Shown here: piece by piece, positions 8,775-59,682 of the stretch
Numbering within the stretch: the stretch's first letter is position 1
Layout: each line of letters opens with the position of its first letter
Origin: Eledone cirrhosa
Lineage: Eukaryota
Direction: 5' to 3'
Assembly: GCA_964016885.1 (NCBI GenBank)
Contig: OZ024746.1
Span: 89,652,001 to 89,716,000 of the forward strand
Length of the DNA: 64,000 nt
Program-made: the position numbers and the translations under genes
Notes under the pieces: model-generated
Seen by the model: the letters and a program-made list of their open reading frames with translations, nothing else
Database searches by the model: none
What the model was told of the DNA's origin: nothing

Positions 8775-9862
8775 TAACGAAGTAGTTGTGGTAAGGAACC
8801 AGATGGACCATAACGCACCAGAGTACTCAATACTGCAAGATAATAATATAACTTACAATCTCACCTGGAGCTTACTGTCCAGAGCTAACTCTTACACGGG
8901 AGGAGGAAACATTACAAATGCTGTTTACGAAGGATCAGCTCCTAAACAAAAAAGACGAACTGGTAACTGCATGAAAACACAGATTGCGTAAGACTTACCT
9001 CGCCCTCAACCCCCCTAACGATCCGGATGGGTAGACAAGGGCTGAAACACCCCACTTGCCGAATAAGATAGGGGAAACCCCAGCTTACATAGGTAGATGT
9101 ACCTCTTTTCTTTTCCTCTATGTTTTCTTCTTCTCTTTGTCTCCTCCTATCACCTCCTTCCACCACCGATCTTCTTCATTCTTTTTTTCCTCTTTTGCCC
9201 ACCCCGAGGCAGCCCATCGGGCCTCTGTAGCCTCATTACCCCCACCCCGGTAACTTAAAGATAGCATTGGCCGAATACGCTATACTAATTAATAATAGCA
9301 GCATCTTCTATTCTCAACTCAGTCTATAGCATTGGCCGAAAAAGCAACACCAACTAAATATAGCAGCTCTTTTAGAATCTATAGTTTTTGTTTTTTATCA
9401 CTTCTCACTATCAATTTTATATTTTTATATATCTTTCTCTGATTTTTTTAATTATTTTTTTATTGTCCTCAAATCTCAATTGATTTACCCATTCTATCAC
9501 GTCCCTCCTCTATTTTCTCCAGAAACCTTTTTTCGCCTTCCTCCTCTGGCCTCTTTTATACACAATACCTAGAATTTGCCGTATAGATTTCACTTTCAAA
9601 GCTTGTCCGGCTACACCCACTCCCTCATTGTTCTACAGGCAAGTTCATCCACCACCACCTCCTACCCACTGTCATGATATACTTATTTGTGTTTATAACG
9701 AATTTTGACCAATCATCTTGACAACTACAATCTTCCCATATAAGGAAGAACCCATTGAAAAGTTCGGCTATTTACTTACCAGACTAAAAATTCTAATTTA
9801 GTCCAGAAATAGCCGTCGAAACGGCTTGAGCTCTGCCGTCGGGGTCATACTTTTTCCTATAT
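8775..9862 (+). mobile_element. 5'-truncated Penelope-like element (Naiad-like, family A): inverted tail, GIY-YIG C-terminus, 3' UTR, HHR
   Basis: 8775-8834 is the inverted family A tail. From 8835 it encodes DNNITYNLTWSLLSRA, identical to the peptide at the end of the 25227-25424 ORF. The 3' UTR is homologous to ~25560-26145. (TA)n flanks. Confidence 0.8.
9738..9860 (+). ncRNA. Type I hammerhead ribozyme with extended stem II and variant core
   Basis: Stem I ACCC/GGGT with distal GGAA/TTCC, core TTGAAAA 9755-9761, stem II G-C plus CGGCTATTT/AAATAGCCG, GAAA 9818-9821, stem III CGGC/GCCG, GTC cleavage triplet at 9838-9840. Confidence 0.65.
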
Positions 9863-11756
9863 ATATATACATATATATATAATCCAAGATGACCGAATAA
9901 GAAAAAACAGGCGGTTATATAATAATGAAAAGTAGCTGTAAAAATAAAAAGCAGAACATAGCATTAGGTTAATATATTTATTGCCAGACAATTTAACATT
10001 CTTCAGATATACAGAACCTCGAATGGTGTTCATAATTCTCCATAACCTGTATGTTTATAACGTATCAAGTCGAAAATATTGCAAGTAATATAATGTGGTT
10101 TTATATCATATTAAACTAACATGCGCTATAAGACTTCAATACCTAAACTAAATACTTCATTTTACACGTTTTAATGTCAGTTTCTGTTTACAATCATCAT
10201 TTTTTGTGAGAGAATCGACGGAACTAAGCTTAATCACACAAACTGTTTGAACATAAATTCAGACAAATTACGCAAAACAGATGGATACTTTCATGCAAGA
10301 AGCATTACCAAAATGTTATTCAACTCCAAACCTACATTATCTAAGATAATACAACACACTCACTAATGTATTGATTGATATGAAAAAATAGACAAAAAGC
10401 AACTGGTTAGAAGATATTCGATCCTTTTTTTTTCAATCTTAACTGATCTGGGGTTGAACAGGAATAACAATAAACATGTATAGGAAACTAAACTCTAAGA
10501 ATACACTTTGGCTATGTTTGCATGATACGAAAGTAAACCTTTTGGCAGTACTTAGATACGGGTGTCGCCATATGCAATTGTAGGTTATGAAAACGAAGGT
10601 GAAAAAAAGATATGAATAAATACAAATAGCATCATATAAAACTAATCGAAGATATTTCCATAGGAGACAATTACATCGACATGACAGATTTTATATTTAC
10701 TATTTTAACCCGTTCCCCATATGTCACAGTCGGAAGAAGCTTCTGTTAATCATACTAAATGTCACTCTTAGGTCAATTGACCTGATATTTTCTTTCACTA
10801 AAACCATTGGAAATGTGTCAGATAACTGTCAGGATTCGAGCATGCTCATTTTGGTAAATTATTTTCATATTAGCTTTTTAGAATTACATTTTTATGTACA
10901 CGTAAAATGAATATACGTTTATTTCGCACATCGCTACACAATGTTTGTGATGATTATTCTTTGTTAAACATATTAAATTACATTTTTTTAATGCTTTGCC
11001 TCGAGCACATAACGCTAATACATCATGTAACTTCTCCCTCACTATATTGATTTTTATTCGTATTGATTTCGTATTTGAAGAGTTTTAAAATGCCTTGAGA
11101 AATTACATGTGTTCGTGTGTTTTTAAATATTTTTTGAATTCGACCTCAATACAAATCTCACGTTAAAGTTACACTTCTGAAGCAAAATAAATTTCCTACA
11201 TTCTTGATCGAAAAGAAGTTTCTTTAAACTAACAAAGCTACTGAGTATGACTTTACACCATTGAGTTATTTTATTTTGATGATAACAAACTATGTCATCT
11301 GTGATGGTTCTCGTGATGCACAGGTAATATGTATGTAGGAAATTGTAACATTAATATTGAAACTGTGATGGAATTTAAAATGTTGATTTAATATTGCGAA
11401 GCTTGTTAATCTGTAATACCATAGCGTGTATTATAAGGCTGTACATGGAAAAGTTAGTAAAACTCAGATCAAATGCTTTGAAATGTTTTATTTTACACAT
11501 TTACATTATGTTTGGTAGGACATGCTTTGCGAACATAATTATGGAAAATATTAAAGCAAATACCTGTTAAACAATGCAAATGTTTCATTTTCGCTAGAAA
11601 TAGATTGTATTCCATTCAAGCTATTTAGAAAGATTAGTATATTTATTAGAGTAGTAGATAGATAAAAAGCAAATTGCCCTACATTTCGTTGTCCCCACCG
11701 TCGTCGTCATTGTCGTCGCCGCCGACGCATCCACCGTGGTCGTCGTCGTATTCGTC

Positions 11757-12120
11757 GTCTTCTTCTTCTTCTTCTTCTTCTTCTTCTTCTTCTTCTTCCA
11801 ATTATTCCTGAGAGAGTCTAACCGGTCCTATCAGAAGCAACACACTCCAAATGGACCGGCTCAAACCCTATACAAGACTAAACGAGATCATACATCTTAT
11901 ACAATCATCTCCCTCATCGTCTACATCCTAGTCTCCTGCCGGTTGATGTTCCTCGTAAAAAATTGTACGACGTGTCTGTCCTTAGATATTCTAAACAATT
12001 GTCCACATAATCGGATCTGTGATCTATCGATTCGGACAAATAACCACATTATGTGGAGCTTCTCTCTGGTCTACAGGCTAATTATTGTATGAAATAAGAT
12101 TACTCTAACCACCCATCAGA
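11757..12120 (-). mobile_element. Degenerate RTE-type LINE 3' end with (GAA)n tail
   Basis: Homologous to the clearer copy at 23597-24090 (shared TCAGAAGCAAC, CTCAAACCCT and CTCCTGCCGG blocks). A (TTC)n tract lies at the 3' end on the minus strand. Confidence 0.6.
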
Positions 12121-13343
12121 GGAACCGATTTCTGTCTCATTTACCTGGGATAATACCCAAATCTTAGGACCACACGAAAGAGTAGACACGGACATTGAAG
12201 AAAGCGAGTTTGGCATTTACACCTATCTCATTTCATCAATACTCTAGTCAGGGTCAAGGACAAATTTAAAGAACAATTTAACGAAAAACCGTTCGTTAAA
12301 TGTGCCCTTTCTTCTGACGTGAGAGGCCGGTTCCATAAGGTCGTGCATACTTGTTCAGTCTATTAATTTTAATATCCAAATAAGATCTTTCGTACTCTAT
12401 TGGGCATTGTTTTTCTTGGCCCGTTGTCACCGGATATTCTGCAAATCTCTATATATAAAGTTGTAGTTCCTATATGGTTGTTTGTTTGTTCAAGAAATCC
12501 TCCTATGGTTTTGGCGATAGACCCCCATATCCATAAATATTCTGAAATTACATTGCCAGGGTAATTGGATAAGTATATATCATTTTAATCAAAGGATTAT
12601 CCGGGGGCACAAACCCCCGCTGAAAATCTTTTCCCTTTGAATTATATGAAATTGTATCTGCGCGCGTATGTATGTATATAAGTGTATGTTTGAGTAGGAT
12701 ATGCTTTTCCTAAGTGATACAGAGCGCGACGTAAACAACCGTTTGAAGGCTTGTGCCGATATGTATCAACAAGTGGGTGTGACTGGGTGCCGTGGAAGAG
12801 AGGGACAGAGGGTATGTGACTATATATACGTCGATGTATGTATGTGGGTGTGTGTGTGTCTGCGCATGTAGGCGTACGCGTGTGTATGCGTAGATAGGTA
12901 TGTGTCTGTAAGTGTGTGTGTATTTTTATGTGTGTATTCTAGTACGTGTGGGTGCTTAATCTGAAGTGTGAGCAGACGTGTGAAGTACTGAACCCAGCAT
13001 GACTCCATTGAAATGTGTCGGGCGGAAAATGGTTGATGAACTGTGTGGCAGCAGATATTGACAAGAACTTGTGATGACGTAGAGTAAAAACAGCCAATGG
13101 CATGACAATAGTGGAATGAGGGTTTTTTGAGGCTGTTGTTTTGATGATAACACCCCAGCGATAACATTTGCTCCGGACGTAACACCCGTGTCTGAAAGAA
13201 CCCGCAGAAGTAGAATCAGACAGATGCATACAAGGACCATGACTCGAGCTACATGCCGGCGAAACATTTGTAACACGAAATAAACTAAGTCCAGATGCAT
13301 CACTGATTTTTCGTTTCCTTTATAATATATATATAACCATACA

Positions 13344-59021: not shown

Positions 59022-59073
59022 TGTAGGGAAAAGTATGACCCTGACGGCAGAGCTCAAGCCGTTTCTGAGGCTA
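59022..59073 (-). mobile_element. Family A HHR 3' half (GAAA, stem III, GTC, stem I')
   Basis: Minus strand AGCCTCAGAAACGGCTTGAGCTCTGCCGTCAGGGTCATACTTTTCC matches 9811-9857. Confidence 0.7.
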
Positions 59074-59536
59074 TTATATATATTCACACATAAACAATTA
59101 TATAAAAATACACACACACAAATATAATACACACACACACACACACACACATATATATATATATATATATATATATATATATATATATATACACACACAC
59201 ACAAAAAGAACAAAAGCATATAAAATACAATTATATACACACATACATATACATACAGATATATATAAACATATATACACATACATATACATACACACAC
59301 ACACACACACACATATATATATATATATATATATATATATATATATATATATATATATATATATATAGTAATAATAATAAAATTGAAGACTAAAATCCAA
59401 AGAGGGCTCGATAAGGAAAATATATATCAAATATATAAGAGCCGTAGGCAGCGATTCTTTGCTTAAACTTTAATCTGTTATTTTAATATATATATATATA
59501 TATATATATATATATATATATATATATATATATATA

Positions 59537-59682
59537 TACGTTATTCCGGGTTGAATCGGAGGTAACCACAGTAAGTAATATACTCAATACATAGCAGAGT
59601 ATAAAAGTTTTAATATAGATGAGATTCTATTAATGAATGAAACAGTTCTAGTCCTGTAGAATCTCATCTATATTAAAACTTA
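59537..59682. mobile_element. PLE micro-element (family C): inverted tail plus HHR 3' half, in (TA)n
   Basis: Homolog of 42061. Perfect 25-bp inverted repeat 59605-59629 / 59657-59681, GAAA 59639-59642. Confidence 0.65.

Follow-up and report, generated by a model that had tools for sequence, protein, structure and literature searches.

We analysed a 64,000-nucleotide stretch of the Eledone cirrhosa genome (assembly GCA_964016885.1, contig OZ024746.1, positions 89,652,001 to 89,716,000 of the forward strand), here called the window, around four loci at which a hammerhead ribozyme (HHR) motif lies beside an inverted sequence tail. Judged from their sequence, these loci are head-to-head insertions of Hydra-clade Penelope-like elements (PLEs). 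The clade assignment relies on motifs compared by eye with those given in Craig et al. 2021 (PMC8557442). Positions with a sign are counted from the predicted HHR cut.

The first locus (family A1) joins a tail-bearing arm at 8777-8836 (-), which ends at about +40 (8834), to a tail-less arm at 8837-9860 (+). The latter carries the C-terminal remnant of a Hydra-type GIY-YIG endonuclease, a 3' untranslated region (3' UTR) and a complete HHR, and ends at +20 in a TA repeat. Its type I HHR spans 9738-9860 (+), with a U3-A8 core variant at 9755-9761, a long stem II and a predicted cut after 9840. At the second locus, the tail arm of family C (B lineage) occupies 16623-16690 (-) and ends at +24 (16690), and the tail-less arm at 16691-16744 (+) runs from -39 to +16 around a predicted cut after 16728. 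The segment 17957-18045 (+) repeats the junction 16623-16711 with 96.6% identity and is therefore not an independent locus. The third locus (family B) has a tail arm at 42061-42126 (-), mapped as L032 and ending near +26, and a tail-less arm at 42128-42194 (+) that begins at -45, exactly at the upstream stop discussed below as the wall, and ends at +22 (cut after 42172). At the fourth, also family B, the tail arm at 59539-59629 (-) ends at -2 (59629), and the tail-less arm at 59631-59680 (+) extends from -28 to +22 (cut after 59658).

The first-pass annotation of the window had described an inverted tail opposite a body that ends in TA-rich DNA just past the predicted HHR cut, and this architecture is present, with a type I HHR, at all four loci. 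Its estimate of a body end about 15-25 nt past the cut agrees with the ends found (+20, +16, +22 and +22). The tail-side breakpoint, which it placed at or near the ribozyme, is found at the cut at one locus only, the fourth. Three further copies had been cited as collinear, with the HHR followed by the tail. The one at 27607 is indeed a single arm; 61758-61860 is a palindrome, and the copy at 33168 (-) has an inverted arm at about 33395-33425. The supposed three separate families reduce to two lineages, A with A2 and B with C, as tails B and C belong together.

Element structure and ribozyme predictions

A complete unit of the B lineage (L431) starts at -51 relative to the cut and continues through HHR, tail and one open reading frame (ORF) of 713 aa to a second pseudo-long terminal repeat (pLTR) ending at +22. 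The start codon of the ORF lies 137 nt past the predicted cut. This layout makes the region of HHR and tail the right end of insertions and at the same time the 5' leader of the next unit. The ORF combines a reverse transcriptase (RT) with a C-terminal GIY-YIG-like endonuclease and contains RWR at 38, DKT at 116, YRDD, CxCX5C at 566 and CxxC at 666 and 691, followed by H (CxxCxH); CCHH is absent from it as judged by eye. Aligned with this ORF over 341 columns, the partial A1 ORF shows 34.6% identity (E 7e-53). The RWK-like/DKT region was recovered in B, not in family A, and A1 copies contain CxC with a decayed third C, plus CxxC. Pfam gave no match for the N-terminal 522 aa of the B ORF and nothing in the three proteins submitted. 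The 3' UTR of the B unit covers about 3.7 kb (L431:1874-5565); long B arms hold microsatellite tracts and degenerate pLTR-like repeats in this region.

Genome-wide, exact tail 23-25-mers occur 13,261 times for B, 4,869 times for A1 and 1,179 times for A2 in a host genome of 3.0 Gb. Control matches number 0, so that the tails are far beyond chance. Numerous additional Hydra-type families are present among the sampled loci. An assignment to non-LTR retrozymes, which are tandem HHR monomers without an ORF, was rejected, as the units here are dispersed stubs of ORF-bearing elements. A lone short tandem, without an upstream HHR core, is found at L264:1-470, where B/C units span about -25 to +135 and reach some 40 nt beyond the outer end called site 1 below; it suggests a further start site and template jumps.

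A pLTR with a type I HHR is present in A1 and B, and cleavage is predicted. The A1 region 9735-9865 folds as a three-way hammerhead junction with a z score of -3.9, and 1 of 200 shuffles was equally good. For a second A1 copy (z -2.0) and for the B motif (z 0.0), the minimum-energy fold of the monomer is not a hammerhead. The B motif has the canonical core, with compensatory changes in stem I between subfamilies. Family A combines a long stem II with the U3-A8 core variant, which is described in PMC4209133. An Rfam scan did not report a hammerhead; it returned only microsatellite-driven microRNA matches and one tRNA-like match.

Fixed outer ends and a common inner wall

For mapping, 280 loci were anchored on tail sequence alone (90 best matches and 190 from position-ordered exact-match lists), and the window was added. 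Tail arms and inverted partners were aligned to natural reference copies. We kept 352 of 362 tail arms with at least 86% identity (A1 162, A2 75, B/C 115) and dropped 10; weakly aligned arms and arms less than 350 nt from a locus edge were left unmapped. Loci from L281 onward, chosen at the wall or the cut, stand outside the statistics. Mapped partner counts (223 pairs) are lower bounds, as references ran into TA, and corrected references underlie the count of 239 pairs. Among genome-wide matches of arms joined to AT flanks, the analysis covered the first 100 of 1,982 for A1, the first 100 of 414 for a control and all 90 for A2.

The outer ends of the insertions are fixed at two sites that lie about 70-77 nt from each other, site 1 at about +90 to +97 and site 2 at +15 to +22, and both coincide with TA/AT matches to the target. 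Of 352 arms, 337 have a dinucleotide run after site 1, and target-site duplications are unreadable inside these microsatellites. Partner arms end at +20 in 92 of 106 cases for A1, at +22 in 31 of 44 for A2, and mainly at +15 and +22 (37 of 73) for B. This bears out the earlier proposal that a second, TA-primed cDNA begins at a fixed site just past the HHR, and the partner end past the cut is the known PLE tail boundary.

With corrected references, the adjacent inverted partner is tail-less for 235 of the 352 tail arms and tailed for 4 (4 of 239 pairs); for 113 arms there is none in the searched range. Among the 223 mapped pairs, 84 joints overlap by microhomology, 24 are flush and 115 contain inserted bases. 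The pairs yield 213 distinct 24-nt junction strings, a few of which recur two or three times. The junctions are thus independent, which supports the first-pass annotation on this point. In 71 of 223 pairs, the partner extends further upstream than its own tail arm, and 22 of 30 A2 arms at the wall (first 30 rows, checked by script) are solo tail-less stubs. Both observations require priming at site 2 on RNA. The architecture originally noted in the window represents those pairs whose tail-side cDNA is shorter than the other.

At their inner ends, both arms share a sharp upstream stop, the wall, at -41 in A1 and A2 and at -45 in B/C. The ends of 186 of 352 tail arms and of 178 of 223 partner arms fall in what we call the wall zone, a 17-nt stretch reaching from 6 nt upstream of the wall base to 10 nt downstream. 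By group, 91/162 (A1), 37/75 (A2) and 58/115 (B/C) tail arms end in it, with p values of 1.6e-42, 1.8e-16 and 1.1e-27 against a uniform distribution. The 44 nt upstream of the zone contain 14 tail ends, and 42 of 352 tail arms run past the wall in all. The position-ordered subset L091-L280 repeats the excess (A1 64/118, A2 18/40, B/C 40/78). Arms end at one and the same base whether they measure 60 nt or 138 nt, which argues for a feature of the template and not for a length limit; a ruler by which RT stops after about 138 nt was rejected, as site-2 arms stop at the same wall after about 60 nt. An apparent second B wall at -343 is the truncation point of a reference copy.

Short-read contigs point to the same position. 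For A1, depth, which is not copy number, climbs from about 36,000 to 940,000 from one bin to the next at the wall, and the 15 inverted-tail joints listed, beside which there are 68 more, all fall at 9799-9809. For B, depth increases about tenfold across the wall, does not rise at the cut and collapses after site 1. One small sequencing run of unspecified kind (X4) was kept out of this evidence.

The cut itself attracts few ends. Within 5 nt of it lie 19 of 352 tail arms, where about 18 are expected from flank density, and within 2 nt 6 of 352; the partner arms give 4 of 223. Compared with the flanks, the cut shows no clustering in A1 (7/162, p 0.79), A2 (6/75, p 0.20) or B/C (6/115, p 0.44). 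There is thus no support for the idea that the HHR cut halts reverse transcription begun at the 3' end, and neither is there for the wider claim that the ribozyme steers insertion structure, as both arms stop about 31-45 nt upstream of the cut, in family A inside loop II. The breakpoints are non-random as proposed, with inner ends piling up and outer ends fixed.

Two side observations concern the wall. Genome-wide, the B wall pattern is skewed between strands (5,884 forward and 3,367 reverse) and the tail pattern is balanced (6,635 and 6,626); the skew may reflect a large one-directional tandem array without that tail word. In A1 joints (L019, L026, L341-L362), A or T runs and short repeats of the last template bases are frequent at the wall and look as if RT re-copied the template end in a telomerase-like manner.

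Likely origin of the wall and of the paired arms

We interpret the wall as the likely capped start of transcription, on the basis of an initiator, a TATA box and an extra G. The initiator consensus is YYANWYY, and the wall base is its A in five of six reference copies. In the window, the motif of the A1 copy lies at 9798-9804 (+), with the A at 9800 (-41) inside loop II of the HHR, and would be a likely transcription start. A TATA box, TATAAATA, is located at -30 to -32 from the wall in each of the two B references; most diverged B/C arms have it about as far away, with one copy at -24. The position of the family A wall inside loop II makes the RNA start separable from the ribozyme edge.

The third indication is an extra base at the wall that neither element nor target supplies. 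In A2 arms joined to an AT flank at the wall, the preceding base is G in 28, C in 16, A in 4 and T in 42 cases (all 90 rows, counted by hand; a script check of the first 30 rows gave 8 G, 8 C and 14 T). A1 arms at the wall show the extra G in 6 of the first 100 among the matches listed. At the control position -31, which has the same T-AG context, the counts are G 0, C 1, A 1 and T 98 in the first 100 among the matches listed. Fisher's test of wall against control gives p 6e-11 with every row included and about 4e-4 if restricted to plain joins, whose number is approximate. In a separate local sample, G precedes 9 of 14 family A arms at the wall and 42 of 156 elsewhere (p 0.006). In full-length L1 insertions, an extra G is a trace of the cap (PMC11702581), and promoters inside the pLTR are known (PMC2377424, PMC3846280).

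Several points weigh against a capped start at the wall. YYANWYY is common, occurring 1-6 times per 130 nt. A TATA box is missing from A2, and the weak TATA-like word of A1 is also part of stem II. For A2 alone, the local sample gives 2/5 at the wall and 6/37 elsewhere (p 0.24), which is not significant. C is raised at the A2 wall too (16, against 28 for G); an untemplated base at the template end therefore has firmer support than a cap. The extra G of B, about 43 of 100 among the matches listed, is confounded and was set aside, because G also results from reverse-complementing the 3' arm of stem I. Ends scatter over about 15 nt downstream of the wall instead of falling on a single base, and the wall zone was defined after the first 90 loci had been seen. 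The short-read contigs derive from one study and may come from the assembly's own sample.

We propose the following route to the paired arms. The endonuclease would nick both (TA)n strands, and the two nicked 3' ends would use one sense RNA for priming, at site 1 and at site 2 respectively. At the first locus, 8777-8836 would then be the site-1 cDNA and 8837-9860 the site-2 cDNA. Both cDNAs would run to the capped 5' end or fall short of it, and end-joining by microhomology or short inserts would produce a head-to-head pair with the tail on one side. An RT that binds the copy of the start signal nearest the cap would generate stubs of 60-140 nt, and an RT that starts in the downstream pLTR of a read-through RNA would generate a long or full-length arm, for example 8837-9860. 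Uncut RNA would be the usual template. That the inner ends about 30-45 nt upstream of the cut arise in this way, by priming from both nicked strands on one sense RNA and run-off at its capped 5' end, is in our judgement probable.

Since the family A wall lies in loop II, neither the upstream core nor the 5' arm of stem I would be part of an RNA that starts there. Site 2 is still at +20 in 76 of 87 A1 partners that reach the wall, which makes it unlikely that the ribozyme fold sets site 2. We lean, by a small degree, towards a broader statement. Most PLE copies here would be the complete first 60-140 nt of a capped transcript, inserted via twin priming at two fixed internal sites, and not 5'-truncated 3' ends; the family A promoter would start in loop II and leave the 5'-end ribozyme half-built and unable to cut, and the hammerhead would be bypassed in integration. 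If true, junction pile-ups would map PLE transcription starts from DNA alone. The prediction is precise to the base, with RNA starting at -41 (A) or -45 (B), and family A, whose wall is inside the ribozyme, serves as an internal control.

Among other explanations, the stems of the ribozyme could shape the joints, either by annealing of stem arms between the two cDNAs or by a fold that stalls RT, with no need for an RNA end. The B wall indeed coincides with the 5' arm of stem I, joints closed by stems occur, microhomology joins 84 of 223 pairs, and secondary end peaks at -35 (A2) and -37 (A1) lie in self-complementary stretches. However, the walls of A1 and A2 are in loop II, away from the edge of stem I, solo arms without a partner end at the same base, more joints (115) carry inserted bases, and the extra G of family A stays unexplained. 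We therefore regard this explanation as unlikely.

Somewhat less probable still is a wall formed by another fixed RNA 5' end, uncapped, such as a processing site or a 3' splice site. In its favour, YAG is read at each of the three walls, a pyrimidine-rich run lies upstream in B and A1, the Penelope element contains an intron close to its start (PMC2377424), and the base added at the A2 wall can be C as well as G. Against this, joints show no common upstream exon and arms join (TA)n directly with at most one added base; the AG is retained in the arms, which do not start after it, and TATAAATA is conserved at about -30 in B.

The mechanism first suggested for the window, in which the RNA is cut by the HHR, reverse transcription coming from the 3' end goes no further than this cut and the ribozyme sets the breakpoint, we judge very unlikely. 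The tail arm of the fourth locus ends at -2, a few A2 arms end at +2 to +5, and among B arms joined to AT, 12 of 33 distinct loci listed end at +1 to -2 as opposed to 2 at -8 to -10 (counted by hand). The B counts also speak against our own reading, and there may be a small excess at the cut in B or a minor role for cut RNA. They are confounded by TA microhomology and unequal slack, and plain (TA)n joins have no peak at the cut. Genome-wide, B arms joined to AT flanks near the cut give 66 forward matches over 13 positions, compared with 115 at the single wall position. Together with the flank-level counts at the cut, the absence of a rise in contig depth there and the finding that HHR mutants leave PAc insertion in vitro unchanged (PMC11167929), this largely refutes the ribozyme cut as the main cause of the breakpoints.

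We give equally little credence to palindromes made by self-priming or fold-back, for instance on an antisense template, as proposed by Arkhipova et al. 2013 (PMC3846280). Many pairs are near-perfect palindromes, in line with fold-back. Yet 71 of 223 partners hold upstream sequence that the tail arm lacks, site 2 is also where solo tail-less stubs and direct full units end, about half of the joints contain inserted bases, and both outer ends are fixed at target-matching TA. An origin of the short palindromes from a small number of master mini-elements, from longer palindromes that collapsed or from errors of the assembly is the least credible: some loci are local duplicates and a few junction strings recur, but nearly all strings are distinct, the wall is common to non-palindromic solo arms, and the short-read contigs contain many different joints to the same zone.

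Known systems and other insertions in the window

PLEs are already known to have inverted pLTRs, a tail on one side, HHRs and (TA)n targeting (PMC8557442), as the first-pass annotation had said of the inverted pLTRs. Similar to Hydra-clade elements with an endonuclease, such as Hydra-1_Obim, the units here have a single RT-endonuclease ORF with RWx, DKT, YRDD, CxCX5C, CxxC and CxH-type motifs, a likeness judged by eye on the motifs. They also share the HHR in the pLTR, the (TA)n targets, the adjacent inverted 5'-truncated copy and the tail at one end only. In contrast to the elements described in PMC8557442, the tail here measures 70-77 nt instead of 30-40, the B unit with its long 3' UTR is about 6 kb long where Hydra elements are usually below 3 kb, and family A has the U3-A8 core and the long stem II.

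The closest functional parallel is PAc (Poseidon, Anolis; Frangieh et al. 2024, PMC11167929). Its RT uses two internal start sites that define the tail, the HHR sits where the ORF side begins, uncut RNA serves as the main substrate, and insertion in vitro proceeds without need for HHR cutting. In the passages of that paper drawn on here, inner junctions are unmapped and no link to a transcription start or cap is made; clade and site spacing differ from ours.

The arms likewise resemble L1 twin priming, in which both target strands prime, cDNAs are joined by microhomology or small inserts, and complete 5' ends carry an extra G (PMC11702581). In L1, the second primer anneals beside the end of the first cDNA, at variable places. 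Here, the sites are fixed, the cDNAs overlap and both reach the same 5' wall. The second site being fixed and the first cDNA usually passing it by about 60 nt, the process works like twin priming, as had been claimed, but does not follow the L1 geometry. Twin priming of L1 was reportedly set out by Ostertag and Kazazian in 2001.

The pLTRs of Adineta elements and of Drosophila Penelope also have a TATA/initiator or internal promoter and occur as head-to-head inverted copies (PMC3846280, PMC2377424). Their palindromes are read there as self-priming on antisense RNA (PMC3846280), whereas we favour two primings on sense RNA. The origin of head-to-head arms with a one-sided tail and the role of the hammerhead are treated as open questions in PMC8557442 and PMC11167929, and our data speak against both ribozyme cleavage as the origin of the breakpoints and antisense self-priming. 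A literature search, with most subscription papers outside its reach, found no paper that ties PLE junctions to cap run-off. The architecture is real and the element type known, with a proposed cap run-off model in place of the unsupported ribozyme-cut mechanism.

Further copies of these families lie in the window. A second long tail-less A1 arm occupies 25290-26144 (+; cut after 26124) and ends at +20, and a solo tail-less A1 arm is found at 59026-59075 (-; cut 59043). An A1 mini-palindrome at 44357-44466 (+) joins a short inverted arm, covering +2 to +20, to a tail arm that starts at +6. The A2 mini-palindrome at 61750-61942 (+) consists of an inverted tail-less arm (cut 61768, minus) and a tail arm (cut after 61850), both reaching into the wall zone. 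The single arm at 27607-27728 (+) is a diverged family A tail arm that begins about 15-25 nt before the cut. At 33165-33425 (-), an old family C pair comprises the inverted tail-less arm and an HHR arm (cut 33346), with a repeat fragment (33244-33330) inserted before the tail. A further A1 insertion at 586-982 has tails on both arms (724-818 inverted, 867-956 direct) and encloses an inverted 49-nt copy of its own left flank (586-634 and 818-866). A comparable inverted flank copy of 36 nt is seen at 27271-27306 and 27572-27607.

Other families are represented as well. The end of a third-family Hydra-type GIY-YIG endonuclease (29973-30950, +; CxCX5C) is 43.5% identical to the B endonuclease. A minimal hammerhead at 60235-60290 (-) lies downstream of an endonuclease remnant at 61010-61795 (-) with CxxCxxC and CxxC motifs, a combination that may resemble the Neptune type. 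The head-to-head palindrome at 39639-39922 bears a hammerhead and belongs to an unrelated family. A dispersed repeat of about 190 nt, similar to short interspersed elements, is found at 2975-3160 with about ten relatives (16210, 17426-18215, 24709, 33244, 56914, 62349), and one fragment of it sits within the PLE copy at 33168. Decayed ORFs of non-LTR retrotransposons, a tandem array of 42-nt units and a tRNA-like sequence occur at 19420-22263, 53861-55636, 38446-39073 and 40103-40175.

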